Shown here: positions 40,897 to 56,387 of the stretch, piece by piece
Layout of the letters: every line of letters begins with the position of its first letter
Position numbering within the stretch: position 1 is the stretch's first letter
IMG/VR virus record: IMGVR_UViG_3300033066_000598
Direction: 5' to 3' (one strand)
DNA: 64,000 nt
From: an uncultured virus (IMG/VR IMGVR_UViG_3300033066_000598)
Lineage: Duplodnaviria > Heunggongvirae > Uroviricota > Caudoviricetes
Made by a program: the position numbers and the translations under genes
Notes under the pieces: generated by a model
The model's input: only the letters and a program-made list of their open reading frames with translations
What the model was told of the DNA's origin: nothing
Database searches by the model: none

Positions 40897-41097
40897 ATGG
40901 CTGACATTCCGCATCTCACGCTCATCATGGAAGTGATCGACGGCGTGCCGCATGGTTGGGCCTGTCGCGGTGAAGGCCGCGGCTGCAAGCGCAACATCAC
41001 TCGACGCAAGGCAAAGCACTGCGAAGACTGCCTTGAAACGCGCAACGACGAGACGATTGGCGACGTGCTCGATCGACTGAAGCGCGGAGATGGCTAG
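40897..41097 (+). CDS. small Cys-containing protein
   Basis: C......C...HCEDC; overlaps the TerL start. Confidence 0.55.
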   Translation: MADIPHLTLIMEVIDGVPHGWACRGEGRGCKRNITRRKAKHCEDCLETRNDETIGDVLDRLKRGDG

Positions 41098-42748
41098 GTC
41101 GAGCGCACTGCCGGCCTTCGATTGGAAGGATCCGGAGCCGCACTACGCGCTGATCTGGCGCCAGCGCGCCGAGCGCCTGCACGCTATCCGCTCGATGCCC
41201 GAGGCAGAGCGCACCGCGTATCTGGAAGCGCTCGCCGGCTGGTACCGCGAGAACCCGTGGGACTTCATTCAGGATTGGGGCGTCACCGTCGACCCGCGCA
41301 ATCTGGAAGTCGGGCGCGAGGCAATGATGCCTTTCGTCATGTTCCCGAAGCAAATCGAGTTCTGCAAGTACATCTTCCGCAAGTGGCGCAATCGCGAGCC
41401 GGGCCTGGCTGAGAAGTCGCGCGACGGCGGGCTGTCGTGGCTGGCGGTGGCGATGGGCGCCACGCTCTGCATTTTCTATCCGGGCATGAACGTCGGCTAC
41501 GGCTCGGTGACGGAAGACTACGTCGACAAGATCGGCGAGCCGAAGTCGCTGTTCTGGAAAGCGCGCATCTTCATTGAGGAGCTGCCGCGCGAGTTCAAGG
41601 GCGGCTGGCACCGCGATCGCCACGCGCCGCACATGCGCATCCTGTTCCCGAATGGCTCGACCATGACGGGGCAGAGCGGCGACAACATCGGCCGCGGCGA
41701 CCGCAAGGGCATCTACTTCGTCGACGAGAGCTCGCATTTGCCGAAGCCGAAGCTGGTCGACTTCGCGCTGTCGCAAACGACCAACTGCCGCATCGACATC
41801 TCGACGCCGAACGGCACCACCGGTTCGTTCTACGATCGCCGCATGGCCGGCAAGATCGAGGTTTACACGCTGCACTGGCGCGATGACCCGCGCAAAGACG
41901 AGGCGTGGTACCAAAAGCAGGTGGACGATCTCGACGACCCCGTGGTTGTCGCGCAGGAAATCGACATCAACTACTCGGCGTCCGTCGAGGGCGTTATCAT
42001 TCCGGCCGAATGGGTGCGGGCTGCTGTCGACGCGCACAAGAAGCTTGGCATCGACCCGAGCGGCGATCGCCTTGCAGCGTTCGACGTCGCCGACGAAGGC
42101 AAGGACAAGAACGCATTCGCCATCGCGCGCGGTGTCGTGCTCGAGCACATCGAGGAGTGGAGCGGCGCCGGCGCCGATATCTTCGACAGTGTCGAGCGCG
42201 TGTTCGGCGTGTGCGATCGCTACGAGCTCGAAAAGTTCAAGTACGACGCCGATGGCTTGGGCGCCGGCGTGCGAGGCGACGCGCGCGTGCTGAACAATGC
42301 GCGCAAGGACGAAGGGCTGCCGCAGTTCGGCACCATCGCCTTCCGCGGCAGTGGAGCGGTGTACGACCCCGAGCGCGAAGACGTGAAGGGGCGCAAGAAC
42401 AAGGATTTCTTCCAGAACGGCAAGGCGCAGGCATGGTGGGCGCTGCGCCGTCGCTTCAAGAAGACGTTCGATTGGGTGACGAAGGGCAAGGCCTGCGACG
42501 CCGACGAGATTATCTCGATCCCGGCCACGCTGCCTTACTGTACGCGCCTTATCACTGAGCTGTCGCAGCCGACGTTCGAACAGAGCTCGATCGGCAAGCT
42601 GCTGGTCAACAAGAAGCCCGATGGCACGAAATCGCCGAACCTGGCCGACGCCGTCATGATGCTGTACGCCAAAGCGGAGCGCGGACCCATGAAGATTTCC
42701 GACGACGTGCTGCTTGCAGCGCGCCGGCTGAAGAAGCCGCGCCGATGA
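41090..42748 (+). CDS. terL: terminase large subunit
   Basis: EKSRDGGLSW Walker A variant, YFVDE, ISTPNG, AFDVADEGKD nuclease motif, SPNLADA. Confidence 0.93.
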   Translation: MARSSALPAFDWKDPEPHYALIWRQRAERLHAIRSMPEAERTAYLEALAGWYRENPWDFIQDWGVTVDPRNLEVGREAMMPFVMFPKQIEFCKYIFRKWRNREPGLAEKSRDGGLSWLAVAMGATLCIFYPGMNVGYGSVTEDYVDKIGEPKSLFWKARIFIEELPREFKGGWHRDRHAPHMRILFPNGSTMTGQSGDNIGRGDRKGIYFVDESSHLPKPKLVDFALSQTTNCRIDISTPNGTTGSFYDRRMAGKIEVYTLHWRDDPRKDEAWYQKQVDDLDDPVVVAQEIDINYSASVEGVIIPAEWVRAAVDAHKKLGIDPSGDRLAAFDVADEGKDKNAFAIARGVVLEHIEEWSGAGADIFDSVERVFGVCDRYELEKFKYDADGLGAGVRGDARVLNNARKDEGLPQFGTIAFRGSGAVYDPEREDVKGRKNKDFFQNGKAQAWWALRRRFKKTFDWVTKGKACDADEIISIPATLPYCTRLITELSQPTFEQSSIGKLLVNKKPDGTKSPNLADAVMMLYAKAERGPMKISDDVLLAARRLKKPRR

Positions 42749-45700
42749 CGGTCAACCGTTACGGTTCCCGGTCCCGCGACGACCGGCGCAGCGCGATCGC
42801 CGAGGGCGTCATGCGGCACTTCGTCGGCGGCAAGCGCGTGACCAGCATTCGGGAGGCCAAGGAAGCCGCTCGCGTGCCGGTGGCGCCGAAGGTGCCGGTG
42901 CCGGCGAAACCCGCACCAGCGGCCGCCGCAGCCGCTCCTGCAGCCGTTGCAGCGCCGGCCGACGGCAAGCGCGCGCTGAAGATCGACAACGCCATGCTGG
43001 CGGCTGCCCGGAACCTGAAGCCGGCGGGGAACCGCAAGCGCACGTCCGGAGCTGTCGACCTGCAGAGCTCGACCATGTTCACGCCTTGGGAACCGCCGAA
43101 GGGCGTGCTGCCCCCCGGCATGACCGCGGCGAAGGTGCTTGAAGCCGGCGGCGGCAACGCGAAGATGGCGATGGACTACGCCGAGGGCCTGGTGCCTGGT
43201 CAGGTGGGCGCCGTCGGAGCCTGGGCCGGCGACGCGCTGAACGTGTCGTTTGCCGAGGGCATCGGCTTCCTTGGCTATTCGTACCTCGCCGCACTCACGC
43301 AGCGCGCCGAGTATCGCCGTATCTCCGAGCGCCTCGCCTCCGAGATGACGCGCAAGTGGATCAAATTCCACACCGTCACCGTGGCCGACGAATTCGAGGC
43401 GCCCGGTCCCGAGAAAGAGCCCGGCACTCCCGCCGGCGCGATGGGTGTGCCTGCAGATCCGGCGGAAGCTGCCGAGACGACCGAAGTCGACCAAGCCGAG
43501 GCCGACAAGGCGCGCGTCGCCGATTCCGTGAAGCGCAAAAAGGCGCTCGACAAGAGCAAGCGCATCAAGGAGCTGGAAGACGAGATGCGCCGGCTGCGCG
43601 TCAAGGATTGCTTCTACACGATCGCCGAGGGCGACGGCTGGTTTGGCCGTTATCACCTGTACGTCGACATGGGTGTAGACAGCGCGACCCGTGAAGGCCG
43701 CGACGAGCTCGTGACGCCGATCGGCAACGGCCGCACAGCGACGTCGAAGGGCAAGGTCAACAAGCGCCGGCGCGTGAAAGCGTTCCGGCCGATCGAGCCG
43801 ATGTGGTGCTACCCGGCGCAGTACAACTCGCTCGATCCGCTGAAGCCGGATTGGTACAACCCGGAAATGTGGTACGTGAACGGCGTCACCGTTCACCGCT
43901 CGCGACTGCTGCGCTTCGTTGGTCGCGAAGTGCCCGACATTCTCAAGCCGGCTTACGCGTTCGGCGGCCTGTCAATGTCGCAGATGGCCAAGCCGTACGT
44001 CGACAACTGGCTGCGCACGCGTCAAGCGGTATGCGACCTGATCGAAAGCTTCAGCGTCAGCGGCGTCTACACGAACCTCTCCGGCGTGCTCGAAGAAGGC
44101 AACGCCGAGGCCATGAAGCGCATCGATATGTTCAATATCATGCGCTCCAACGCCGGCGCCTTCGTGCTCGACAAAGAGACCGAAGAATTCTTCAACGTCT
44201 CGACGCCGCTCGGCACGCTCGATGCGCTGCAGGCGCAGAGCCAAGAGCAGATGTCGAGCGTCTCCGGCATTCCGCTGATCGTGCTGCTCGGCATCACGCC
44301 GAAGGGGCTGAATGCGTCGAGCGAAGGCGAGCTGCGCGCGTTCTACGACACCATTCAGGCCGAGCAGGAGCGCTTCTTCCGCGACAACCTGCAGACGGTT
44401 ATCAACTTCATCATGCTGTCGCTGTGGGGCGAAATCGACGAGGAAATCACGTTCTCGTTTGAGCCGCTCTGGTCGATGACCGACAAGGAGCTCGCCGAGA
44501 CGCAGAAGGTCGAGGCCGAGACCGACGGCATGCTGATCGACAAGGGCATCATCACGCCGGCGGAAGCGCGCGTGCGTGTCGCCAACGACCCGCAGTCCGC
44601 GTACCAGGAAATCGACCCGGCCGACGTACCCGAACCGCCGCAGCAGGACATGGGCGACGAGGGCGGCGACGATCCGTTCGGCGGTGGCGGTGATGACGGC
44701 GGCGACGGTGGCGGCAGCTCCGGCTCCGAAGCTGACAAGCCGATCGCCAACGACGAGTGGAACGAAGCGGACCATCCGCGCGGCCAGCCCGGCAACGCCG
44801 GCCAGTTCGGGCCCGGTGGCGGCAGCAGCAAGAGCAAGCCGCAGGATGCGAAGCCGAAGAAGACCAGCGCGCAGACCGACGACCTGAAGAAGGTCGGCGG
44901 CAAGCTGGGCAGCAACGAGGGCGGCCAGTACGAGGATGCCGAGGGCAACAAGTACTACGTCAAGAAGCCCAAAACGAAAGACCATGTCGCCAACGAGAAG
45001 GCTGCCGCAAGATTGTATCAGCTGGCCGGTGTGCAGACGCTCGACTACGTCGACGTCGGGCCCGACCATGTCGCGACCAAATGGGACAAGCTCGACAAGA
45101 GCAACATTTCGAAGATGTCGACCGAAGAAAAGGCCGAAGCCGCGAAAGACTTCATGGTGCACGCGTGGCTGTCGAATTGGGATGCTGCCGGCACCGGCGG
45201 CGACAACCAGGGTGTGAAGAACGGCAAGCCCGTGACGCTCGATGTCGGCGGCTCGCTCCGGTACCGCGCGCAGGGCGGCGAGAAGGGCAAGGCGTTCGGC
45301 CACAAGGTCTCCGAGATCGAGACCATGCGCGACCCGAAAATGTCTCCCGACGCGGCTCGCCTGTACGGCAAGATGAGCGACGCGGACATGCGCGCCAGTG
45401 CCGAGCGCGTCACGTCAATTCCGGACAGCGCCATCCGCGAAGCTGCCGGCGACGAAAAGCTTGCTGACACGCTGATCGCGCGCAAGAAGGACATTGCGCA
45501 GCGCTACGACCTGAAGCTTGCGCAGGATGCCGTGCACGACGACGAAGCGCTCATGAAGGCCGCGCTCGACGCTGTCGGCGCCAACCTCGACGATGGAGAC
45601 GACGGCAGCGACGTCGACGACCAGGAGCGCATCGACAACGAAGAAGACCCGGGCGATACGCTCGATCTCGCGACCGACGGCACCGCTGACGGTGAGCACG

Positions 45701-47592
45701 AAGTAATCATCCGGGCCGACGGCGATTTCCCGTGGGTCAAACTACTCGCGCACCTGCGCCGGCTTGGTGCAATCGGCGCGTCGCGCACGATCGAGGCCTA
45801 CGACGAAGAAGACCGGCCTGTGAAGTTCGGTTGGGATGGTGACGGCGCCGACAAGATTCGCTCTGTCGTGATTGACGGTCAGAAAATGGCGCTCGACGCC
45901 GCACTTGCCTATCTCGATCCCGACCCGACAGAAGTCGCGCCCGACGTGTTCGCCTTTGACGAAGGCAAGTTCGACGAAAGCAAGCACAAGCGCGATGCCG
46001 GCGGCAAATTCGCAACGACGGGGGCGAGCGGTGGCAAGGAAGGCGAAGAAGCCGAAGCCGATAAGGACGCCGGCGATGTGCCGGTGTTCAAGTCGAAGAA
46101 GGAGCAAATCGGCTACATGCTCGAAAAGGGCACTACGCCGAAGGAGCTGATGGCGGCAATGGGCTGGCCGTCGGTCTCGATGCCGGCGCAGGCTGCCAAT
46201 CTCGGCATGAAGCTTGAGAAAAAGGACGGCAAGTATTTCGGCATCAAGATGACCGACGCCGAGCTCGCCGAATTCAAGGCGGCGCAGGCCGCGAAGAAGG
46301 CGGCGAAGAAGGCCGCCCCTTCTGAGCCTCCGTCGGCCATCGAAGGCACGCCGCTCGGCGAGACGCTGAAGAAAGCCGAAGCGATCAACAAAGAACAGGA
46401 CAAGCAGCAGTCCGCCGAAAAGCCGCCGGCGGAGGGTGCGCCGAAGAAGCCCGACCAGGCTGTGCTCAACAATCTTGAAAAGCCCGCTGCCGGCGAAGCG
46501 CCTGCGACATATCCGCAATGGCTCGGCGCCGTCGCGGAAGCAGCCAAGGGCGACAACCCGAAAGACGTCATTACGGCACTGTTCAAGGCATATCCGGAAT
46601 TCGTCGACGAGTACCTGAAGCACGCCAAGCCGTCGCAGGTGACGAAGCTGGAAGCCGCTGCACCGGGCCTGTTCAACAAGTCGAAGCCGAAGCCGCCGGC
46701 GCCCGAGGCCTCGCAGGCCGACAAGGAGAAGGCCAAGAAGGGCGTCGCGCTGAAGATGGAGTACGTCAAGGCCAATGCGAAGCCGGAGACGGAGACGTAC
46801 AAGAAAAAAGCAAACGACCTGCTGAAGGAATTCAACGACCAGTGGGCCGGCAAGGAGAACCTGCCGAACGACCAGCTCAACCAGAAGGTCGCCGACTACA
46901 AGAAGCTGTCGGAGGACATCGGCAAGCTGGCTGTCGAGGAAAACAAGCAGAAGGCGGAGATCCTGAAAGCCGAGCAGGAAAAGGCCGCGTGGGAGCAAAA
47001 GCAAAAGAAGGAGGCCGAGGAAAAGGAGCTCGCCGAGGCCTTCGCCAAAGACCCCGAGCTGAAGCTGCACCACGAGGCGATGGAGGCGCTGTTCGGCGGC
47101 GGCAAGGCTTCCGATAACTACCTGGCGCACGCGCAGAAGAAAGTGAATGCGGCCGGCCTCAAAGGCAAGATGAGCGCGCACGAAGCCGTGCCGATCGTCG
47201 CCTACAGCGGTTCGCACTACGCGCAGCTGAACAGCGAAATCCGAAGCGGCTCGATGTCGGTCGCGCAGTACAAATTCCTGAAGTCGCTGAACGCGGGACT
47301 CGACAAGCTGCCGGCATACGAAGGCACGACTTATCGCAAGGCGCCGAGCGGCGCGGTCGACCTGAAGATGTACCAGCCCGGAAAAGTCGTGGAGGAACGC
47401 GGCTTTACGAGCAGCAGCAAAAACAAGGGGACATGGCACGGCGACGTGCAGTATACGATCCACGGCAAAACGGGGCGGGACATTCAGAAACTATCGTCGC
47501 ACCCCGGCGAAGCCGAAGTGCTGTTCAAGTCCGGAACGCGCTTCTACGTCGAGAGCGTGCAGGGCACGCACATCACGCTGCGGGAGCTGTGA
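42745..47592 (+). CDS. DUF1073-type portal fused to a HipA/PI4K-like kinase and an ADP-ribosyltransferase
   Basis: Portal motifs (EMTRKWI, VHRSRLLRF, SGIPL..LLG.TP.GLNA.SEG..R.FYD, F.PLW); kinase GSN.GG/YVK/NE/WLSNWD/LDVGG; ART YR/FTSSS/EAEVLF. Confidence 0.9.
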   Translation: MTVNRYGSRSRDDRRSAIAEGVMRHFVGGKRVTSIREAKEAARVPVAPKVPVPAKPAPAAAAAAPAAVAAPADGKRALKIDNAMLAAARNLKPAGNRKRTSGAVDLQSSTMFTPWEPPKGVLPPGMTAAKVLEAGGGNAKMAMDYAEGLVPGQVGAVGAWAGDALNVSFAEGIGFLGYSYLAALTQRAEYRRISERLASEMTRKWIKFHTVTVADEFEAPGPEKEPGTPAGAMGVPADPAEAAETTEVDQAEADKARVADSVKRKKALDKSKRIKELEDEMRRLRVKDCFYTIAEGDGWFGRYHLYVDMGVDSATREGRDELVTPIGNGRTATSKGKVNKRRRVKAFRPIEPMWCYPAQYNSLDPLKPDWYNPEMWYVNGVTVHRSRLLRFVGREVPDILKPAYAFGGLSMSQMAKPYVDNWLRTRQAVCDLIESFSVSGVYTNLSGVLEEGNAEAMKRIDMFNIMRSNAGAFVLDKETEEFFNVSTPLGTLDALQAQSQEQMSSVSGIPLIVLLGITPKGLNASSEGELRAFYDTIQAEQERFFRDNLQTVINFIMLSLWGEIDEEITFSFEPLWSMTDKELAETQKVEAETDGMLIDKGIITPAEARVRVANDPQSAYQEIDPADVPEPPQQDMGDEGGDDPFGGGGDDGGDGGGSSGSEADKPIANDEWNEADHPRGQPGNAGQFGPGGGSSKSKPQDAKPKKTSAQTDDLKKVGGKLGSNEGGQYEDAEGNKYYVKKPKTKDHVANEKAAARLYQLAGVQTLDYVDVGPDHVATKWDKLDKSNISKMSTEEKAEAAKDFMVHAWLSNWDAAGTGGDNQGVKNGKPVTLDVGGSLRYRAQGGEKGKAFGHKVSEIETMRDPKMSPDAARLYGKMSDADMRASAERVTSIPDSAIREAAGDEKLADTLIARKKDIAQRYDLKLAQDAVHDDEALMKAALDAVGANLDDGDDGSDVDDQERIDNEEDPGDTLDLATDGTADGEHEVIIRADGDFPWVKLLAHLRRLGAIGASRTIEAYDEEDRPVKFGWDGDGADKIRSVVIDGQKMALDAALAYLDPDPTEVAPDVFAFDEGKFDESKHKRDAGGKFATTGASGGKEGEEAEADKDAGDVPVFKSKKEQIGYMLEKGTTPKELMAAMGWPSVSMPAQAANLGMKLEKKDGKYFGIKMTDAELAEFKAAQAAKKAAKKAAPSEPPSAIEGTPLGETLKKAEAINKEQDKQQSAEKPPAEGAPKKPDQAVLNNLEKPAAGEAPATYPQWLGAVAEAAKGDNPKDVITALFKAYPEFVDEYLKHAKPSQVTKLEAAAPGLFNKSKPKPPAPEASQADKEKAKKGVALKMEYVKANAKPETETYKKKANDLLKEFNDQWAGKENLPNDQLNQKVADYKKLSEDIGKLAVEENKQKAEILKAEQEKAAWEQKQKKEAEEKELAEAFAKDPELKLHHEAMEALFGGGKASDNYLAHAQKKVNAAGLKGKMSAHEAVPIVAYSGSHYAQLNSEIRSGSMSVAQYKFLKSLNAGLDKLPAYEGTTYRKAPSGAVDLKMYQPGKVVEERGFTSSSKNKGTWHGDVQYTIHGKTGRDIQKLSSHPGEAEVLFKSGTRFYVESVQGTHITLREL

Positions 47593-48520: not shown

Positions 48521-49363
48521 ATGCTAGCGACAAGCTTCCGGGCGATTGAGACGACGGGGTTTCGGCGCACGAAGCTTGTGGAGCTCAAACCCAACTGGCC
48601 ATCCGCCGGCGTGCAGGCTGCCTACCAGAAGAAGCTGCAAAAGCTGCTCGACGAAATGGCCGACAGCGTCGAGTACTGGATTGATCGCAAGTACAAGGCC
48701 AACGAGCCGGCCACGATGGCGATGGACGACGTGCTGCCGGCGAACGCGCTGAAGCAGACGATCGCCGAGCTCGTGAAGCGCTGGCAGAAGAAGTGGAACG
48801 AGGCCGCGCCGATTCTCGCGAAGTACTTCGCCGAGGAAGCGCTGAAGCGCAACGACGCCAACCTGAAGGCCATCCTGCGCGAAGCCAACTGGACGGTGCG
48901 CTTTCGCATGACGCCGGGCATGCGCGACGTGCTCAAAGCCACGATCGAGCAGAACGTCGGGCTCATCAAATCGATTCCGGAGCAGTACCTGAAGGGCGTG
49001 CAGGGGCACGTCATGCGCTCGATCCAGGCCGGCCGCGACATGGGCCCGCTGGCGAAGCAGCTGCAGGCGCAGTACGGCGTGACGAAGAAGCGCGCGGCGC
49101 TGATCGCTCGCACGCAGAACAACCTCGCCACCGGTGCGATGGACCGCGCGCGCAAGTTGGAGCTCGGGCTGACGAAGTCGAAGTGGCGCCACTCGCACGC
49201 CGGCAAGGAGCCGCGGCCGACGCACCTTGCGAACGACGGCAAACTGTACGACCACGCGAAAGGCTGGTACGACCCCGACCCGAAGGTGCGGCGTTACATT
49301 TTTCCGGGAGAGTTGATAAACTGCAAATGTAGCAGCATCACCGTGGTCCCTGGATTCTCATGA
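48521..49363 (+). CDS. MuF/SPP1 gp7-like minor head protein
   Basis: NV.LIKSIP.QY, RA.LIAR.Q, W.HS....PRPTH...DG..Y, PG..INC.C. Confidence 0.9.
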   Translation: MLATSFRAIETTGFRRTKLVELKPNWPSAGVQAAYQKKLQKLLDEMADSVEYWIDRKYKANEPATMAMDDVLPANALKQTIAELVKRWQKKWNEAAPILAKYFAEEALKRNDANLKAILREANWTVRFRMTPGMRDVLKATIEQNVGLIKSIPEQYLKGVQGHVMRSIQAGRDMGPLAKQLQAQYGVTKKRAALIARTQNNLATGAMDRARKLELGLTKSKWRHSHAGKEPRPTHLANDGKLYDHAKGWYDPDPKVRRYIFPGELINCKCSSITVVPGFS

Positions 49364-49956
49364 CCTACGTTGTTTACGAGCACTGGCGCCCTGACACGAA
49401 TGCTTGCTTCTACGTAGGCAAGGGAAAGATGCGCCGTGCGCGCAGCTTCGAAGCGCGCAACGATCGTTACGGCAAAATTGTTGCCAAGCTGAAGCGGGCC
49501 GGCCTGCAGCCCGAAGTCCGGATTGTCTTAATCGACTTGGATTCCGAGGGCGCACTGAAGGCCGAAGTCGAACGCATTCGACAGCGTCGAGCAGAGGGCG
49601 TCGACCTTGCAAACTACACTGACGGCGGCGACGGCGCGGCAGGACGCCGTCATTCGGCAGCTACGCGCGCGAAGATCGCGGCGAAGGCAACAGGTCGGAA
49701 GATGTCGCCGGAAACGATCGCGAAGATGGCTGCAGCGCGTACAGGTCAGAAGCGGACTGACGACACCCGAGCCAAGCAAAGTGCTTCAGCTAAGATCGCG
49801 CAAAAACTTCGGTTTGAGAAACTGAAGCAAACACGGGCAGGTCGAAGGGCTCTGCAGCTGCGCATGACCGCCATCGCGCACAAAGGGCGCGGGACACCGG
49901 AATACAGCGAGCAGAAAAGGCAGGCTGGTCTTGCTAGCTGGAGAAACCGCTCGTGA
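49360..49956 (+). CDS. GIY-YIG-like endonuclease with NUMOD3 repeats
   Basis: YVVYEH.RPD....FYVGKG...R, E...I, L.N.TDGG.G; HS..TR.KI repeats. Confidence 0.85.
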   Translation: MTYVVYEHWRPDTNACFYVGKGKMRRARSFEARNDRYGKIVAKLKRAGLQPEVRIVLIDLDSEGALKAEVERIRQRRAEGVDLANYTDGGDGAAGRRHSAATRAKIAAKATGRKMSPETIAKMAAARTGQKRTDDTRAKQSASAKIAQKLRFEKLKQTRAGRRALQLRMTAIAHKGRGTPEYSEQKRQAGLASWRNRS

Positions 49957-50150
49957 TGCGCAAAGGAGCTTTCGGCGGGCCGAAGTGGCAGGCTGGCGCG
50001 GGCGCCAACCGGAACAGGAACGTCTCGCTGATCCGCCGGGGCATGACAGAGGCCACCAACAAATACGGCATAGGCGGGGCCCTGAAGGCCCGGAAACGGC
50101 CTTCCCCGAGCCTTCCACCGACGCCGTGGGACAAGGACAAGGCAACATGA
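49953..50150 (+). CDS. small basic protein
   Basis: GTGA/ATGA coupling. Confidence 0.45.
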   Translation: MMRKGAFGGPKWQAGAGANRNRNVSLIRRGMTEATNKYGIGGALKARKRPSPSLPPTPWDKDKAT

Positions 50151-50461
50151 TCGGTCGACGGGAGTTTTTGGGGCTTTTCGGGCTTGCGGCTTTGGGTGTC
50201 TCCCTCCCTCCTGCAGCCGCGGGCGTTGTGGCGGCCACGCCGACGGATTCGATTCCGGCCTTTCGTATTCCGCGCGGGGTGGTCGTCACGGTGCCTGCCG
50301 GGCCGATCGAGCGGGTGCCGCACGTTCCCTCGATCATGGACGTGATGATGATCTCCACCGGCGATCGCCTGGTGCCGCTCGAGTCCGACGAAGGGCAAAG
50401 GATCCACGCCGAAGGCAAGCCGTCGATGGTGAAGCGGCACTTCATTCGGTCGACGGAGTGA
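50147..50461 (+). CDS. protein with twin-arginine (Tat) signal
   Basis: MIGRREFLGLFGLAALG; AAGG RBS. Confidence 0.6.
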   Translation: MIGRREFLGLFGLAALGVSLPPAAAGVVAATPTDSIPAFRIPRGVVVTVPAGPIERVPHVPSIMDVMMISTGDRLVPLESDEGQRIHAEGKPSMVKRHFIRSTE

Positions 50462-50709
50462 GTTGGCCGCTCGACATGAGCGCTGCCGAGCGGCGTTGGT
50501 TTGAAGATCGCAGCGCGGCTCGCGATGAGCATGCCTACCGACTGCGGCAAGAAAAACTGAAACTTCACCAAATCGGGGAGCGCCTTGGTGTCACCAAGCA
50601 GCGCGCCGCGCAGATGGTGGCAAAGCATACCCGAGCGCGGTTGCCGACTGGCGCGTGCAAAAAAGACCCGGCTGCAGCGGCAACGCGGCCGGGTCGCTCC
50701 TTCAGTTAA
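50458..50709 (+). CDS. sigma70 region-4-like HTH protein
   Basis: RD..AY.LR....L.QIGERLGVTKQRA.Q. Confidence 0.7.
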   Translation: MSWPLDMSAAERRWFEDRSAARDEHAYRLRQEKLKLHQIGERLGVTKQRAAQMVAKHTRARLPTGACKKDPAAAATRPGRSFS

Positions 50710-50722
50710 GCGGATTAACGAG

Positions 50723-51091
50723 ATGGCATTGCTCGCGCGCCGGCGCGTGAACGCGAACGGCGTCACGTATTCGGCCATCTATCATTGGTGCCAAGCCTGC
50801 GACGAGCTGCACGGCGTTTGGGTGAATGAGCAGCCGCAGGACACGAAGCCCTCGCCGCGGTGGACGTTCAACGGCAGCATGGAGCGGCCTACCTTTGAGC
50901 CGAGCGTGCGCGTGTTCTCCAACTACGACGAAAACGACGTCAAGCTGCCGAACAACGGCGAGCGGACGTTGTGCCACTACTTCGTGCGAGACGGCATGAT
51001 CGACTATTGCGGTGACAGCCCGCACGCCTACAAGGGGCAGAAGGTGCCGCTGAAGGACATTCCGCCGGGCTGGTTTCGCGATGACGAATAA
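50723..51091 (+). CDS. DUF6527-like protein
   Basis: WC.AC...H, WTFNG..E.PTF.PSV, CH.FV.DG.I.YC.DS.H...GQ.V.L. Confidence 0.8.
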   Translation: MALLARRRVNANGVTYSAIYHWCQACDELHGVWVNEQPQDTKPSPRWTFNGSMERPTFEPSVRVFSNYDENDVKLPNNGERTLCHYFVRDGMIDYCGDSPHAYKGQKVPLKDIPPGWFRDDE

Positions 51092-51128
51092 GCTATAGCT
51101 TCCCGCCTTCAATCAGGGAGGGAAGCCC

Positions 51129-51566
51129 ATGCTATCGAGACGAGGATTTTTCGGAGTTGCAGCTGGCGCCGCGGCTGTTGCCGCCGGCGGTGCTGCTGCG
51201 ATGCCGGCGCCGGCGGCCATTTCGACGGGAGTTGACCTGGCGGCCGGCGCCGATACCGCCATCGTCTATTTGAGCGACCCGACGCACTTTCATGGCTACG
51301 CGGTCGCACAGAACAGCGCGCGGCCGGGCGAGATGGTGAAGCTGCAGCTGCGCTTCGAACCCAACGACCTGACGCGCGAGCAGCTCGCGGCCAACCTTCC
51401 GGTGCCGGCGCAGGAGATCGGCGCACCGTTGCCGAAGAACACGCCGGCGCAGCGCGCGCGCCAACAGCGGCTGCTGAAGGAATGCAACAAGCCGGTGCCT
51501 GAGAAGGAAACCGAAAAGCAATTCCTGAAGCGACTGTCGCTGCCTTGCCCGGGGAGACTCGAGTGA
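51129..51566 (+). CDS. protein with twin-arginine (Tat) signal
   Basis: MLSRRGFFGVAAGAAAVAA; AGGGAAGCCC leader. Confidence 0.65.
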   Translation: MLSRRGFFGVAAGAAAVAAGGAAAMPAPAAISTGVDLAAGADTAIVYLSDPTHFHGYAVAQNSARPGEMVKLQLRFEPNDLTREQLAANLPVPAQEIGAPLPKNTPAQRARQQRLLKECNKPVPEKETEKQFLKRLSLPCPGRLE

Positions 51567-52012
51567 AGGCGCGCATAGTCACCGGCCCGGTATCGCTGTT
51601 TCCGGAAGCCGTCGTACTGATCGTCTCCGGGCAGGCGGATTTGCTGGCGCGAGGCCTCGCCGACTCGCGATTGGAAATCTCGCAGGCCTGGCAGTGCGTG
51701 ATGGTGAAGGTCGATCGGGACCGCGACCTGGTGCCGGCCGGCATTATCGCTTTCACCGTCGACGAGGCGCGCTCGCTGGTGTGGGTGCAGATGTCGTTCG
51801 TGGTGCCGGAGTTTCGCGGGCAGGGCGTCTATCGCTTCATGTACGAGGCGCTGCGCGCGATCGCCAAGCAGCACCGCTGCCGCACGATCGAGGGCGCGAC
51901 GCACATCAAGAACACCGTGATGCGGTCGGTGGCGAAGAAGCTGGGCCGCACCGAATGCGCGATCATCCTCACTGAGGAAATCGATATCGAGCCCGAAGTT
52001 CGCGCGGGGTAG
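51563..52012 (+). CDS. GNAT-family acetyltransferase
   Basis: FV.PEFRGQGV...MY acetyl-CoA motif A; N..M.....KLG. Confidence 0.85.
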   Translation: MKARIVTGPVSLFPEAVVLIVSGQADLLARGLADSRLEISQAWQCVMVKVDRDRDLVPAGIIAFTVDEARSLVWVQMSFVVPEFRGQGVYRFMYEALRAIAKQHRCRTIEGATHIKNTVMRSVAKKLGRTECAIILTEEIDIEPEVRAG

Positions 52013-52018
52013 GGTGAC

Positions 52019-52411
52019 ATGCACCATACCGCCACCAAGGGAAATATCGGGGTCGCGAAAGCGATCGCCGATCTCATGTTGAAAGGATGGGACGTCTCAA
52101 TCCCGTTCTGCGCGACGTCACCGTTTGATTTGGTGGCCTATCGAAACGGGAAATTTGTCAGAGTCCAAGTAAAGTATCGGACCCCATCCAAAGGCGTTAT
52201 CGACGTTCGGTGCATGCGTCACTCGAATGCCAATGGTAAAGCGAAGCAGTCGAGCAACGACGAAGCCGATGTTGTGTGCGTCTACGACGCTGCGGGCGAC
52301 AAATGCTACTACGTTCTCGCCTCAATGTGTCCGATCGCATTGAGGTTGAGGCCGACAAGGAATGGTCAAAAGAAAAACGTTTGGTCGGCGGATGCCTTCC
52401 TAGATTTCTGA
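52019..52411 (+). CDS. PD-(D/E)XK endonuclease (group I intron-associated family-like)
   Basis: KG..G......L...G..V..P......FDLV.......RVQVK; lower GC. Confidence 0.85.
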   Translation: MHHTATKGNIGVAKAIADLMLKGWDVSIPFCATSPFDLVAYRNGKFVRVQVKYRTPSKGVIDVRCMRHSNANGKAKQSSNDEADVVCVYDAAGDKCYYVLASMCPIALRLRPTRNGQKKNVWSADAFLDF

Positions 52412-52476: not shown

Positions 52477-54090
52477 ATGGCTGTTGAAGACGACGTCGCC
52501 GATTTGCTGCTCGTGTGCCTTGGCGGCGCGCAGCTCGCGTTCGATCGCGCGCCTGAAGGCGTGGATCTGCAGCGCCGCGGCGAAATCATCACGATCGCGT
52601 TCGACAAGGCCGGCGAGTCCGTGCGTCGCACCGACGACTTCGCGCGGCTGCACGTCAAGAGCTCGCCGATCACGAAGGCCTGCATCAATCCGTACTACGG
52701 CCGCGAGATCCCGCGCGCGAAGGAATTGGGCCTCGACCCGAACAAGGTCTATCGGCTGCTGCGCCATCCCGACGAAATCAAGAAGGCGGCTAAGACCTTT
52801 CACAACATCCCGCTGCTGTCGAAGCATGTGCCGCACACGGCCGACGACCACGACGGCGATATCACGGTGGGCACGACCGGCTCGGAAGCCGAGTACGTCC
52901 ATCCGTATCTCATGAACAGCCTGGCTGTTTGGTCGCGCGACGGCATCGACCACGTCGAGTCGGGCGACCAGAAAGAACTATCCAGCGCCTACAGCTACGA
53001 CGCTGACATGACGCCGGGTGTGTACGAGGGGGAACCCTACGACGGAGTGATGCGCAACATGGTCGGAAACCATGTCGCGCTCGTGAAGAAAGGCCGCGCC
53101 GGCTCTGACGTCGTCGTGGGTGACGAAGCACTGCAACCAGACAAGGAGACTACGATGTCGACGAAGACCACCAAGATTGCCAGCCTGCGCGCTGGCATGG
53201 CGCTTGGCGCGCTGCGCGGCCACTTCCTCGCCAGCAAATTGAAGCTGGCGCAGGACGCCGCGCTGCCCGACTTCTCGCCGCTGTTCACTGCGGTGAAGCC
53301 CGGCAAGTTCAAGGCCGCAATCCCGACGATCGTCGCCGGCGTGCAGAAGGGCCTGAAGGGCAAGCTCGCGCAGGACGCCGACCTTGGCGGAATCGTGAAG
53401 GGCGTCGAGCAGCTCATGACGGCCGTCGAAGGCGACAAGACCGTTGCCGACGCCGACGTTGCGGATCCGGCGGCCATGGAAGACCCGGGCACTGGCGAGC
53501 TCGACCCCGACGAGCCGGTGATGGACGGCAGCTGCGAGGCGATCGCGGCCTACCTGAAGTCGAAGGGCGTGCCCGACGACGTCATTGCCGGCATGCCCGG
53601 CATGGCGAAGGAAGGCGGCGAGGGCGGCGCGACCGACGGCCCGACCGACGAGATGGCTGCGCGCCTGGCTCGTGGCGGCGCCAAGGACAAGGACGAAGTC
53701 GTGGAGGAAGAAGGCGACGACGGCAAGGGCGGCAAGAAGAAGCCGTTTGCGATGGACGAAGCCACCTTCGCCAAGCGACTCGAGCAGACGCGCAAGACCG
53801 CGATCGCCGACATGAACGCGGTGTCTGACGCGCGCAAGCACGTTCGCCCGATCGTCGGCGAAATCGAGATGGCCTTCGACAGCGCCGCCGGCGTCTATCA
53901 GCAGGCCTTCAAGATGGTCGGCAACACCGACGCCGCGAAGCAGACCGACGCCGCTGTGCTGAAGTCCATGTGGAACATGGTGCCGGTCAAGCGTCACCAG
54001 CCCGAGCTCGCGCAGGACAGCGCCACCGACGGCGAGAAGCCGTTCCACGAGCGTTTCCCGAACGCTGCCAAAGTTCGCAAGCACGCCTGA
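52477..54090 (+). CDS. DUF2213 prohead protease/scaffold
   Basis: ITKA..NPY.G.EIP, F..IP.L..H, ELSS.Y, G.Y.G..YDG.MR...GNHVALV..GRAG. Confidence 0.88.
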   Translation: MAVEDDVADLLLVCLGGAQLAFDRAPEGVDLQRRGEIITIAFDKAGESVRRTDDFARLHVKSSPITKACINPYYGREIPRAKELGLDPNKVYRLLRHPDEIKKAAKTFHNIPLLSKHVPHTADDHDGDITVGTTGSEAEYVHPYLMNSLAVWSRDGIDHVESGDQKELSSAYSYDADMTPGVYEGEPYDGVMRNMVGNHVALVKKGRAGSDVVVGDEALQPDKETTMSTKTTKIASLRAGMALGALRGHFLASKLKLAQDAALPDFSPLFTAVKPGKFKAAIPTIVAGVQKGLKGKLAQDADLGGIVKGVEQLMTAVEGDKTVADADVADPAAMEDPGTGELDPDEPVMDGSCEAIAAYLKSKGVPDDVIAGMPGMAKEGGEGGATDGPTDEMAARLARGGAKDKDEVVEEEGDDGKGGKKKPFAMDEATFAKRLEQTRKTAIADMNAVSDARKHVRPIVGEIEMAFDSAAGVYQQAFKMVGNTDAAKQTDAAVLKSMWNMVPVKRHQPELAQDSATDGEKPFHERFPNAAKVRKHA

Positions 54091-55265: not shown

Positions 55266-56387
55266 ATGAACTTTCAAGCTGCCCGCTCTCGATTCGTCGC
55301 CGACAAGCGCCGCTTCGAGACCCTCGGCGTCGTCTTCCCGAACGTCAAATCGTACATTCCCGACGGTTGGGGCGACAACGTCACCCTGGCGATGGACGGC
55401 GACCCCGACTTCGCTCGCATGGCGATGGACGCGCAGCCTGGTCTGACGACCGTCGCGAACACCGGTATCCCGGCGTGGCTCACCACCATGATCGACCCGG
55501 AAGTGTACGAAGTGCTGTTCTCGCCGCTCGAGGCGACCAGCATCTTCGACGAAGTGCAGAAGGGTGACTGGACGCTGAACAGCGTCATGTTCCCGACCGT
55601 CGAGCACACTGGCGAGACGTCGGCATATGGCGATTACAGCAACAACGGTTCGGTGAACGCGAACACCAACTTCCCGAGCCGGCAGCCGTTCCTGTTCCAG
55701 ACCATCTTGCAGTACGGCGATCGCGAGCTCGACGTTGCGGGCGAAGCGAAGATCAACTGGCTGAATGAGCTCAACGCTGCTGCAGCGTGGGTCATCAATC
55801 AGTACCAGAACACGTCGTACTTCTTCGGCATCCAGGGCCTGCAGAACTACGGCATCCTGAACGACCCGAACCTGACCGCGGCGCTCACGCCGGCGCCGAA
55901 GGCCTACGGCAACAACAAGTGGGTGACGAACAACGTCATCACCGCTACCCCGAACGAAATCTTCCTCGACATTCAGTCGTTGATCATCCAGCTCATCAAT
56001 CAGTCGGGTGCCAACATTAACCTGAAGTCGAATTTCGTTCTGGCGCTGTCGCCGTCGTCGGAGTTCGCAATCACCGCGACCAATAGCTTCGACGTCAACG
56101 TGTCGGACCTGCTGAAGAAGAACATTCCGAACCTGAAGATCGTTTCGGCTGTTCAGTACGGCGAGCAGTCGGCGACCAACCCGCAAGGCGTGGTCGGCGG
56201 CAACTTCGCGCAGATGATCTGCACGGACGTTCGCAAGCAGAAGACGGGCTACGTCGCGTACAATCTGAAAATGCGCGCCGGCCGCCTGGTCCCCGATATG
56301 TCGAGCTACAAGCAGAAGATGGTAGGCGGCACGCTCGGCGCCGTTATCCGCCAGCCCTTTGCCATCGCCAGCATGATCGGCATCTGA
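55266..56387 (+). CDS. major capsid protein (DUF2184 type)
   Basis: AMDAQP.L.T..N.GIP..LT..IDP, KGDW, YGD, YFFG..GL.NYG.LNDPNL, GGT.GA.I..P. Confidence 0.92.
   Translation: MNFQAARSRFVADKRRFETLGVVFPNVKSYIPDGWGDNVTLAMDGDPDFARMAMDAQPGLTTVANTGIPAWLTTMIDPEVYEVLFSPLEATSIFDEVQKGDWTLNSVMFPTVEHTGETSAYGDYSNNGSVNANTNFPSRQPFLFQTILQYGDRELDVAGEAKINWLNELNAAAAWVINQYQNTSYFFGIQGLQNYGILNDPNLTAALTPAPKAYGNNKWVTNNVITATPNEIFLDIQSLIIQLINQSGANINLKSNFVLALSPSSEFAITATNSFDVNVSDLLKKNIPNLKIVSAVQYGEQSATNPQGVVGGNFAQMICTDVRKQKTGYVAYNLKMRAGRLVPDMSSYKQKMVGGTLGAVIRQPFAIASMIGI

Follow-up and report, generated by a model that had tools for sequence, protein, structure and literature searches.

In phage T4, the head-packaged ADP-ribosyltransferase (ART) Alt is cut by the prohead protease at a short acidic-ended motif and injected together with the DNA. 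One protease motif (L/I-x-E for T4 gp21) is common to the capsid protein, scaffold, and internal proteins of this phage. The MuF polymorphic toxins of temperate phages, reportedly described by Jamet et al. in 2017, are said to carry toxin-like C-terminal domains on a head-internal protein encoded beside the portal gene. The relevant passages of Iyer et al. 2017 and 2022 (PMC5512222, PMC9503650), in which T4 Alt is cited, describe ART, NUDIX, and 2H effectors fused to portal and MuF proteins, as well as a polyvalent-protein kinase. According to these passages, ART is the commonest enzyme of polyvalent proteins; the polyvalent-specific kinase clade, in which an insert separates the catalytic His from the Asp, is found chiefly in (pro)phages of Verrucomicrobia-Chlamydia and Bacteroidetes; and processing is proposed to occur via zincin-like metallopeptidase domains. 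Since polyvalent proteins and ARTs fused to portal or MuF proteins have already been published, the concept considered here is not new in kind; our literature search did not find the proposed Φ-A-x-D cleavage code, cargo swapping between carriers, or the HPR junction element.

The window analyzed here is a stretch of 64,000 nucleotides from an uncultured virus of the Caudoviricetes (IMG/VR IMGVR_UViG_3300033066_000598), a high-G+C phage of >64 kb found in wastewater and freshwater samples; all of the features described below lie on the + strand. An ORF at 42745..47592, whose first 4 bases overlap the end of the large terminase gene (TerL; 41090..42748; phrog_5989) directly upstream, encodes 1615 aa with no internal stop, confirming the gene that the first-pass annotation had placed after TerL. 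In the single chain of this portal-anchored polyvalent protein, a PF06381 portal is followed by an atypical protein kinase and a 70-aa module, and then by a DUF3489-like module and an R-S-E ART. Its homologues carry PF18760, PF18823, and PF18857, which we take to be polyvalent-protein Pfam families. The portal+kinase+ART layout was found in 48 of 117 homologues, supporting the earlier view of the portal as an anchor for C-terminal enzyme cargo, and the homologue survey proposed with that view also showed that the cargo modules shuffle among relatives. Nothing was found to favour an assembly or frameshift artefact in which an ordinary portal gene had been joined to a distinct effector gene; in a tblastn search against 1021 phage records, the portals of cultured phages matched only aa ~94–634. 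Contigs of 4 runs from 4 independent studies cover the gene and bridge both the portal–kinase and kinase–ART boundaries with 0 indels and 0 joints, at least half of its sampled words are present in 15 runs, the 20 runs holding it come from 10 studies, and portal and kinase form a single chain in 55 of the 117 homologues. The artefact is therefore extremely improbable, and the fusion gene is confirmed as real. It resembles polyvalent proteins, as characterized in the relevant passages of the two papers (PMC5512222, PMC9503650), in its several effector domains per chain and its portal–terminase head module.

The putative basic N-terminal propeptide (aa 1–144, 42745..43176; 14.9 kDa, pI 11), delimited by motif conservation and enrichment, ends in MAMD141-144, and Φ-A-[ML]-D is kept at this position in 20/20 close homologues. 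The predicted mature portal (aa 145–670, 43177..44754; 58 kDa) matches the phrog_146 portal (E 3.6e-97), and its Phage_portal_3 core (PF06381) at aa 179–594 (43279-44526; Pfam E 2.9e-70) bears out the DUF1073-type portal domain recognized earlier. The Pbunavirus phages PB1, E217, and Pa193 have homologous portal, MuF, DUF2213-scaffold, and capsid proteins, and their portals of ~765-769 aa are without kinase or ART but have one extra C-terminal domain, which is unseen in the maps and can tentatively be read as pyrophosphatase-like. The PB1 portal has VAMD at residues 73-76, and the first 93 residues of the Pa193 portal are missing both in the map and in LC-MS (PMC11456595).

The proposed kinase-like module corresponds to aa 712–921 (44878..45507), a stretch with zero matches to Pfam. 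Its AlphaFold model (pLDDT 95.2) confirmed an atypical protein-kinase-like domain, with CtkA as the top match (190 aa, rmsd 3.4 Å) in the comparison with known folds (VIA; CtkA Z 13.7, CotH 12.2, MavQ 11.3, PI4KIIα 11.0, HipA 10.7), and all 50 among the matches listed were protein-kinase-like folds. The residues K35/E46/D108/N116/D128 were invariant in 36 sequences, and the family comprises 2794 clusters at E ≤ 1e-10. Like CtkA, CotH, PI4KIIα, and HipA, the phage domain combines the protein-kinase-like fold with the Lys, Glu, Asp...Asn, Asp catalytic set, whereas it is only 10-17% identical to them, compact (210 aa), and without a Pfam model. In contrast to the host range given for the polyvalent-protein kinase in the relevant passages of PMC5512222 and PMC9503650, this kinase occurs in a high-G+C wastewater and freshwater phage.

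The C-terminal ART claimed earlier was recovered at aa 1437–1615 (47053..47589), with Pfam ART (PF01129; aa 1437–1606, E 5.6e-7) and ADPrib_exo_Tox (PF03496; aa 1468–1606, E 4e-6) both above their curated cut-offs and with the R-S-E motifs YRKAP, FTSSS, and GEAEV. Among solved chains, 6drh_B and 6dre_B are nearest (E 2e-15), followed by XopAI and ExoS, so that the closest solved relative is 6drh_B and not Alt; moreover, T4 Alt is an independent protein directed to the scaffold core, whereas the ART here is a portal fusion. Both kinase and ART look catalytically intact. The K/A/E-rich helical region preceding the ART (aa 1176–1436, 46270..47052) had zero matches in a family search and travels with it, the "coil" and ART modules co-occurring in the homologue module map. 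Farther upstream, a small DUF3489-like domain (aa 1105–1175, 46057..46269; Pfam DUF3489 E 0.0039, below cut-off) is present in 38 of 117 homologues, one of which (P0043) has PF11994 in its precomputed annotation.

Downstream, the prohead protease-scaffold protein (52477..54090; Pfam DUF2213, phrog_2229; E 3.3e-11 against Pa193 gp24) contains a DUF2213 domain at 52642-53127 (Pfam E 5.9e-45); its start was guessed to be the ATG at 52477, the ORF being open from 52276. The DUF2213 model matched T4 gp21 (Z 10.3, 129 aa, 3.0 Å), the VZV protease (Z 8.7), and the EBV protease (Foldseek E 5.4e-4), and H84/S136/H166 were invariant in 20 sequences; judged from this model, the protein is a real prohead serine protease with the T4 gp21/herpesvirus assemblin fold. 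It carries seven Φ-A-x-D motifs, none of them within the protease domain, and the motif directly precedes that domain. The short adjacent MuF (48521..49363; Pfam Phage_Mu_F E 7.8e-13, phrog_324) has 280 aa, as claimed, with MAMD66-69, and in contrast to the MuF polymorphic toxins it is bare, the carrier here being the portal. In the major capsid protein (55266..56387; phrog_264, with the match starting at aa 51; E 5e-16 against a Pbunavirus capsid protein), LAMD41-44 (55386-55397) and MAMD52-55 (55419-55430) lie ahead of the N-arm. A 16-sequence alignment placed [LM]-A-M-D ahead of the capsid N-arm in 13/16 proteins (exceptions LGMD, MAAD, and APMG) and aligned it with Pbunavirus SAMD61-64. 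The Pa193 and E217 capsid cryo-EM models begin at residue 66, and according to both papers (PMC11456595, PMC10329688) the missing N-terminal residues may be cleaved or disordered. In Pbunavirus, the first ordered residue of the capsid protein thus comes after A-M-D.

The six Φ-A-x-D motifs listed in the first-pass annotation were all present in the 1615-aa protein, starting at residues 141, 667, 925, 975, 1048, and 1069, and three more were detected (VAND612, VAPD1064, and FAKD1433). Whole-protein shuffles predict 2.38 occurrences of [MILF]A.D, compared with the seven observed (P = 0.012), and TerL, the negative control, has 0. All nine [LMIFV]A.D motifs fall outside the five folded domains (945/1615 residues), and linker-only shuffles gave a mean of 1.53, with 0/5000 reaching nine. 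Four joints are kept in 18–20 of 20 close homologues, whereas VAND612 and FAKD1433 are not conserved. Junction 1 (44743..44835) consists of IAND667-670 followed by EWNEADHPRGQPGNAGQFGPGGG, the HPR element, with [AG]-x-D directly before [ED]-W/F-x-E-x-x-HPR in 20/20 close homologues. LAQD925-928 (45517..45528), just past the last kinase helix, lies in coil after the model helix ending at model residue 215, and A-x-D is kept there in 19/20. An acidic 50-aa linker (aa 929–978, 45529..45678) then ends in LATD975-978, which is conserved solely in homologues carrying the following module. That ~70-aa module (aa 979–1051, 45679..45897), also claimed earlier, has zero Pfam or PHROG matches, ends in MALD1048-1051, and behaves like a cassette with sites on both sides: it was found in 5/117 homologues, and the flanking motifs are kept in its three close carriers. 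Junction 2 (45928..46035), EVAPDVFAFD (FAFD1069-1072) followed by EGKFDESKHKRDAGGKFATTGASGG, is a second HPR-type element, with F-A-[FML]-D-E in 18–19 of 20.

When observed and expected motif counts were compared in 35 related loci, enrichment was found in the scaffold (80 vs 18.9), MuF (38 vs 8.1), capsid protein (28 vs 6.6), portal N-terminus (37 vs 6.2; 6-fold), and cargo carrier (169 vs 81.9), with 22 vs 16.6 in the portal core, depletion in TerL (8 vs 14.9), and just 1.7-2.1-fold enrichment in the cargo extension (77 vs 44.3). After the kinase, [AG]xD was present in 24/32 loci of the same head family vs 2/45 other loci (Fisher 4.6e-11, for non-independent loci), and both this contrast and the enrichment overstate the independent support, because the linkers are Ala/Asp-rich and evolutionarily related. 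The strict Φ-A-x-D followed the kinase in 8/32 family loci and in 53/232 kinase copies overall. The motif tracks the head-module family and not the kinase. These patterns support the suggestion that Φ-A-x-D behaves like the site of the DUF2213 prohead protease, in place of the L/I-x-E of T4. Because the motif lies at the capsid N-arm and before the protease domain and is 4-6-fold enriched in the scaffold, MuF, and portal N-terminus, release of the cargo by the prohead protease inside the capsid is well supported in silico and predicted as probable. No zincin-like metallopeptidase domain was detected in the 1615-aa protein, and its joints carry a predicted prohead serine protease motif, unlike the polyvalent proteins covered by the relevant passages of PMC5512222 and PMC9503650.

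We consider it fairly likely that the protein is a portal-anchored polyvalent effector, freed by the protease in the head and ejected with the genome into the host; the cuts, head retention, ejection, and targets we infer as follows. The portal subunit C-terminal end faces the capsid interior, so that a prohead could hold up to 12 cargo chains, and the DUF2213 serine protease would co-assemble with its scaffold tail. Cutting after Asp (Φ-A-x-D↓), it would shorten the capsid protein by cleavage after D55, break down the scaffold, strip the portal of its basic N-terminal 144 residues, and split the cargo chain at D670, D928, D978, D1051, and D1072. Besides the 58-kDa portal and small acidic peptides, this would yield the 28-kDa atypical protein kinase, a module of 8 kDa, and a 59-kDa fragment comprising the DUF3489-like domain and the arginine-type ART. 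The freed enzymes would remain inside the DNA-filled head, exit via the portal and tail together with the genome, and phosphorylate and ADP-ribosylate host proteins ahead of any phage gene expression. The earlier proposal of protease-released effectors was thus partly supported, namely in the cargo on the portal, two enzymes that look catalytically intact, a real prohead protease, and a motif that behaves like its site. Against release of the ART as a small domain, a conserved site directly before it is absent. Because FAKD1433 is not conserved (FAKN in 5/20 close homologues, and the next residue is Pro), the ART probably leaves as the ~59-kDa fragment (aa 1073–1615).

Junctions 1 and 2 share a longer conserved element, Φ-[AG]-x-D-[ED]-x-x-[WF]-x-E-x-[DK]-HPR-x3-G-[KQ]-F-x-x-GGG, with 121 instances in 76/118 proteins, and [AG]xD lies 5–14 aa upstream of HPR in 110/121 instances. 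The motif could alternatively be a scaffold or capsid contact, and the junctions may be conserved linkers for module recombination or for scaffold, capsid, or DNA binding, with processing elsewhere, e.g., by a host protease after entry. Consistent with this, the modules clearly shuffle among relatives, and the HPR element occurs between modules on carriers that include portal, MuF, and DUF2213 proteins, as well as in the PHROG portal profile phrog_113 (E 0.004). Nevertheless, a shuffling or contact role instead of cleavage appears quite unlikely to us, since the motif also occurs at the boundary of the capsid propeptide and all along the scaffold, which are places without cassette exchange. 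It also lies directly before the protease domain itself, and phages with other head modules lack it behind the kinase. The HPR element is also found in proteins with no Φ-A-x-D nearby, indicating that it has another role, which the cleavage model does not cover.

The location of the kinase varies among relatives, always within the same head module: besides the portal, it occurs at the N-terminus of the protease, directly before the protease's own Φ-A-F-D (L007, L008, L017, and L038), or in a separate ORF (L030, L032, and L033). This bears on whether the cargo is released at all. If only the propeptide or nothing were removed, the enzymes would stay covalently attached to the 12 portal subunits, acting either while virions are assembled in the producing cell or as a DNA-organizing internal core, and would never be free in the next host. 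The modest motif enrichment in the cargo extension is compatible with such tethering, as is the modeling of the Pa193 and E217 portals only to residue 528 of ~765-769 (PMC11456595, PMC10329688). We regard it as unlikely, however, given that the conserved joints sit exactly where modules meet, that the 70-aa cassette brings its own two flanking sites, and that relatives place the same cargo on the protease or in its own ORF, an arrangement suggesting that the cargo need not be joined to the portal in order to function.

The ORF at positions 42745–47592 of the plus strand encodes 1,615 amino acids without an internal stop codon, and the large terminase gene (TerL) lies immediately upstream. The window is a segment of a phage genome; its left part encodes a primase-helicase, a Dda-like helicase, RecT, an exonuclease, and methyltransferases, and its right part holds a head–neck module. 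The genes following the ORF encode, in order, a bare 280-aa MuF protein, a NUMOD3 homing endonuclease, DUF6527, a GNAT protein, a PD-(D/E)XK nuclease, the DUF2213 protein (at most 604 aa), an XM1-gp53-type decoration protein, and the major capsid protein. Public data contradict an assembly or frameshift artefact as the source of the fusion: contigs from four runs, each of a different study, together covered the gene over its full length, and none showed an insertion, deletion, or joint. Individual contigs bridged 42745–46014, 43025–44882, 44387–45584, 44815–46565, and 44940–47248, and together crossed both the portal–kinase and the kinase–ADP-ribosyltransferase (ART) boundaries. In 15 public runs, at least half of the words sampled from the gene were found; the 20 runs containing it, from 10 studies, were labeled as wastewater, freshwater, riverine, aquatic, and pond metagenomes. 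Near-identical copies occurred in runs dated 2017–2025, some of whose libraries were labeled metatranscriptomic. When aa 640–1615 were used as the query, the homologue survey returned 118 proteins of 888–2827 aa; with the protein's own cluster left out, a portal was found in 63 of the remaining 117, the kinase module in 107, the ART in 65, and all three in 48. One homologue was a Verrucomicrobia "phage minor head protein" (P0111). A scan of genome contigs with the whole protein found no relative.

The Phage_portal_3 profile (PF06381, DUF1073) matched aa 179–594 far above its curated cut-off (E = 2.9e-70; 237 bits vs 33.8), and this match, together with the gene position after the large terminase, identifies the portal. 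The chain combines several effector or enzymatic domains (a kinase and an ART, plus two small modules), and is linked to the portal–terminase head module both by carrying the portal itself and by lying directly after TerL; both are features of phage polyvalent proteins. The Pfam and PHROG scans found no peptidase family in the protein, including the zincin-like metallopeptidase domain that is a frequent, not obligatory, theme of this class. In the passages considered here, Iyer et al. (2017) defined polyvalent proteins, described 2H and PBECR domains fused to MuF and to the portal as well as a kinase clade specific to these proteins, and proposed zincin-like peptidase domains for their processing (PMC5512222); Iyer et al. 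(2022) reported fusions of ARTs to head or portal proteins, and of NUDIX domains to MuF, the portal, and the capsid-processing serine peptidase (PMC9503650). The kind of fusion is therefore already known, and the protein is a polyvalent member. In MuF polymorphic toxins, the toxin lies C-terminal to MuF, whereas the window MuF consists of the MuF domain alone; it was described at first pass as short, and only the MuF domain was matched across its 280 aa.

The module after the portal had been called kinase-like from the sequence, and an AlphaFold model of aa 712–921 (44878–45507; mean pLDDT 95.2) bore this out, as its predicted fold matches kinases. All the top Foldseek matches were kinases or phosphotransferases. 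In the structural search (VIA), all 50 listed matches were kinases (Z = 13.7 to 7.8), led by CtkA (Z = 13.7; 190 aa, 3.4 Å), CotH (12.2), MavQ (11.3), PI4KIIα (11.0), HipA (10.7), and Rio1 (10.5), and the model thus predicts a bilobal protein-kinase-like fold. In an alignment with 35 homologues, K35, E46, D108, N116, and D128 were invariant in all 36 sequences, and were assigned, from the pattern of the sequence, as the putative ATP-binding Lys, helix-C Glu, catalytic Asp and Asn, and metal-binding Asp, respectively. There was no match to the kinase in Pfam, PHROG, or NCBIfam, nor any Pfam match across aa 640–1430, and a PDB sequence search returned chance matches (E > 1). The nearest named clusters in the ESM Atlas, which are leads only, were HipA_2, PI3_PI4_kinase, and LepB_N (0.92). 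This family without a Pfam model had 4,198 cluster representatives at E ≤ 1e-3 and 2,794 at ≤1e-10, mostly within proteins of 800–7000 aa, and was present in at least 600 IMG/VR stretches vs 20 of 50,697 cultured-phage records. Some proteins contained two to five copies, and one of 3,416 aa (P0121) had five matched stretches. In the few cultured phages with the kinase, it lay inside a large protein annotated only as an "ADP-ribosyltransferase"; in Pseudomonas phage Dolphis (L082, 5069–8737), this was a 1,222-aa protein apart from the head genes shown. The kinase probably belongs to the polyvalent-protein clade of Iyer et al. (2017), which, in the part of that paper used here, is described as having its catalytic His and Asp separated by an insert (PMC5512222); the corresponding stretch of the window kinase reads H-AWLSNW-D.

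At aa 1437–1606, two Pfam ADP-ribosyltransferase families scored above their curated cut-offs (PF01129, 29.5 bits vs 22.3; PF03496, 26.7 vs 23.4), rising to 33.6 and 32.2 bits when the domain was scanned alone. The translation contains the R, S-T-S, and E-x-E motifs as YRKAP, FTSSS, and GEAEV; the family consensus likewise runs R...STS...ExE, and the alignment with 6drh_B covers all three. This segment is therefore predicted, from sequence, to be an R-S-E ADP-ribosyltransferase of the Alt/VIP2/C3-like group. The closest solved chains were 6drh_B and 6dre_B (E = 2e-15), which we take to be the type VI effector Tre1 that modifies FtsZ, followed by XopAI and ExoS. Of the smaller modules, the 70-aa module (aa 979–1051) occurred in five of the 117 homologues, and the DUF3489-like module (aa 1105–1175; Pfam E = 0.0039, below the cut-off) in 38. 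The 70-aa module, the N-terminal 144 aa, and the helical region had no match in Pfam, PHROG, or NCBIfam.

All six Φ-A-x-D motifs listed by the first-pass annotation are present, and three more were found. All nine copies of [LMIFV]-A-x-D lie outside the five folded domains, which occupy 945 of the 1,615 residues; composition alone would place 1.56 copies inside the domains and 1.67 outside, and when only the linkers were shuffled, the mean was 1.53 and none of 5,000 shuffles reached nine. Of the seven motifs in the DUF2213 protein, two precede the protease domain and the other five are in the scaffold tail, leaving the domain itself free of them. In the capsid protein, LAMD41 and MAMD52 come shortly before the start of its PHROG match, and MuF has MAMD66. 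No copy was found in the window's TerL, homing endonuclease, DUF6527, GNAT, or nuclease. The last four of these genes, which occupy the MuF-to-protease interval (49360–52411) of the head module, look like mobile or accessory genes that were inserted there. A greedy longest-ORF caller selected antisense ORFs in this high-G+C window and so gave an unreliable enrichment background; composition-based expectations on identified proteins of 35 related loci were used instead. Although the sequences are related and the linkers rich in Ala and Asp, observed counts vs expectation were 80 vs 18.9 in the scaffold-protease, 38 vs 8.1 in MuF, 28 vs 6.6 in the capsid protein, 37 vs 6.2 in portal N-termini, 169 vs 81.9 in cargo carriers, 77 vs 44.3 in portal C-terminal extensions, 22 vs 16.6 in portal cores, and 8 vs 14.9 in TerL.

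Among 20 close homologues, the N-terminal site was retained in 20, the joint that precedes the first HPR element (a longer conserved junction sequence) in 20 as [AG]-x-D, the post-kinase site in 19, and the FAFD joint in 18–19. LATD975 and MALD1048 occurred only where the 70-aa module was present, and the module is thus a cassette that brings both flanking sites with it. Two other copies were rejected as sites: VAND612, in the portal C-terminal helix region, has a nonconserved Asp and is followed by Pro, and FAKD1433 is also followed by Pro and reads FAKN in five of the 20 homologues. An [AG]-x-D within 18 residues after the last kinase helix was present in 24 of 32 loci of the same head family vs two of 45 other loci (Fisher 4.6e-11, with the loci related and some near-duplicates). 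The strict Φ-A-x-D was less widespread than this loose form, with eight of 32 vs none of 45.

The DUF2213 protein (52477–54090) is predicted from its model (pLDDT 83, >90 in the core) to have the T4 gp21/herpesvirus assemblin fold. The model resembled the T4 prohead protease gp21 (5jbl_A; Z = 10.3, 129 aa, 3.0 Å) and the varicella-zoster protease (1vzv_A; Z = 8.7), and the next, unrelated folds scored Z ≤ 5.5; Foldseek ranked herpesvirus proteases first (EBV, E = 5.4e-4), and the ESM Atlas gave YonD_N (0.93) and Mu-like_Pro (0.88) as leads only. In an alignment with 19 relatives from related loci, H84, S136, and H166 were invariant in all 20 sequences and form a predicted conserved catalytic His/Ser set. 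The protein also matches Pa193 gp24 by sequence (E = 3.3e-11), and a fragment of gp24, termed a putative scaffolding protein, was located inside the Pa193 capsid in the portion of that study cited here (PMC11456595); the window phage therefore has a protease–scaffold fusion of the common type. The ORF is open from a GTG at 52276, where it overlaps the PD-(D/E)XK gene; the ATG at 52477 is the likelier start. Two Φ-A-F-D motifs, at aa 87 and 107 when numbered from the GTG, lie ahead of the protease domain whichever start is used.

Pbunavirus phages offer an external comparison for the motif. The window capsid protein is a true homologue of the Pbunavirus capsid protein (E = 5e-16). In 13 of 16 aligned capsid proteins (one from the window, 14 from related IMG/VR loci, and one from PB1), [LM]-A-M-D and a following Ala stood directly before the conserved N-arm; the other three read LGMD, MAAD, and APMG. 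The motif aligned with "SAMD" at residues 61–64 of PB1. The Pa193 capsid is identical there (GSAMD64-S65-N66), and the deposited E217 chain begins at N66. In the cryo-EM studies of Pa193 and E217, as far as the sections used here describe it, the capsid was modeled from residue 66, and the authors stated that the first 65 residues may be cleaved or disordered (PMC11456595, PMC10329688); residue 66 is thus the first ordered residue, not a determined N-terminus. According to the XM1 paper, 30 N-terminal residues are missing from the XM1 capsid. For the Pa193 portal, the same portion of that study gives residues 1–93 as missing from both the map and LC-MS (PMC11456595); the PB1 portal has VAMD at 73–76.

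The carrier of the cargo varied while the head module stayed constant. Many loci had the kinase on the portal, whereas L007, L008, L017, and L038 had it at the N-terminus of the DUF2213 protease, and L030, L032, and L033 in an ORF of its own. In two of the protease-borne cases (L007 and L017), the C-terminal flank of the kinase runs straight into the protease Φ-A-F-D, the motif with which the DUF2213 alignment begins in those rows that extend so far. The related phages with the kinase on the protease or alone had the same TerL–portal–MuF–protease–capsid order, and in L017, the ART stays on the portal while the kinase is on the protease. The joints at 667 and 1069 fall within the longer sequence Φ-[AG]-x-D-[ED]-x-x-[WF]-x-E-x-[DK]-H-P-R-x3-G-[KQ]-F-x-x-G-G-G, the HPR element, whose copies of about 25 aa lie between modules at 44755–44835 and 45961–46035 of the window and also in homologues P0003–P0119. 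We found 121 instances in 76 of the 118 proteins, one to three per protein; 110 had [AG]-x-D 5–14 residues upstream, and 108 were followed by a Gly/Ser-rich stretch. A few instances had no nearby A-x-D, and in the capsid protein and scaffold, the Φ-A-x-D motif stands without the element. The HPR element had no Pfam match and weakly matched the tail of the PHROG portal profile phrog_113 (E = 0.004).

In the proposed mechanism, the DUF2213 protease would cut the chain after the Asp of Φ-A-x-D, in parallel with T4 Alt, a head-packaged and protease-trimmed ART; the evidence for this parallel is at the level of the motif. The predicted products are an N-terminal propeptide (1–144; 14.9 kDa, pI 11), the mature portal (145–670; 58.0 kDa), the kinase (671–928; 27.9 kDa), an acidic linker peptide (929–978; 5.3 kDa), the 70-aa module (979–1051; 8.0 kDa), a short peptide (1052–1072; 2.2 kDa), and the DUF3489-like domain with the helical region and ART (1073–1615; 58.9 kDa). 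A broader reading, which we offer tentatively and consider rather doubtful, is that Φ-A-x-D, cut after the Asp, is the specificity code of DUF2213 proteases in general, that the cargo consists of cassettes flanked by their own sites, and that the HPR peptide is a common N-terminal tag. Cutting after Asp would leave every released module starting with the HPR peptide, [ED]-x-x-[WF]-x-E-x-[DK]-HPR-x3-G-[KQ]-F-GxGGG, whose role would lie in retention or ordered ejection, or in activity within the new host. Since cassettes would bring their own flanking cut sites, they could hang on any prohead-internal carrier: the C-terminus of the portal, the N-terminus of the protease, MuF, or a separate ORF. 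The code would apply to a widespread group of DUF2213 prohead proteases, including those of Pbunavirus phages of experimental Pseudomonas phage therapy. In our literature searches and the consulted passages of Iyer et al., no Φ-A-x-D (A-x-D) specificity was assigned to DUF2213 proteases, no such motif was described as taking the role of a peptidase domain in delimiting cargo cassettes, and the HPR element was not described. Should the cuts prove real, a single short motif would predict the whole pre-expression protein cargo of a large phage group, and would provide a testable rule for cargo loading and release without a dedicated peptidase domain. That a kinase and an arginine ADP-ribosyltransferase occur together suggests an early attack on host proteins by two routes, and the cassette logic could be put to use for loading phage heads with proteins of choice. 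Virion mass-spectrometry data already available for Pbunavirus phages allow the motif to be checked.

The PB1 portal gp18 (L003, 2112–4421; 769 aa) has an extra C-terminal domain of approximately 240 aa, which looks pyrophosphatase-like from its sequence. The Pa193 and E217 portal maps end at residue 528, and thus the well-studied Pbunavirus phages may also have portal-borne cargo.
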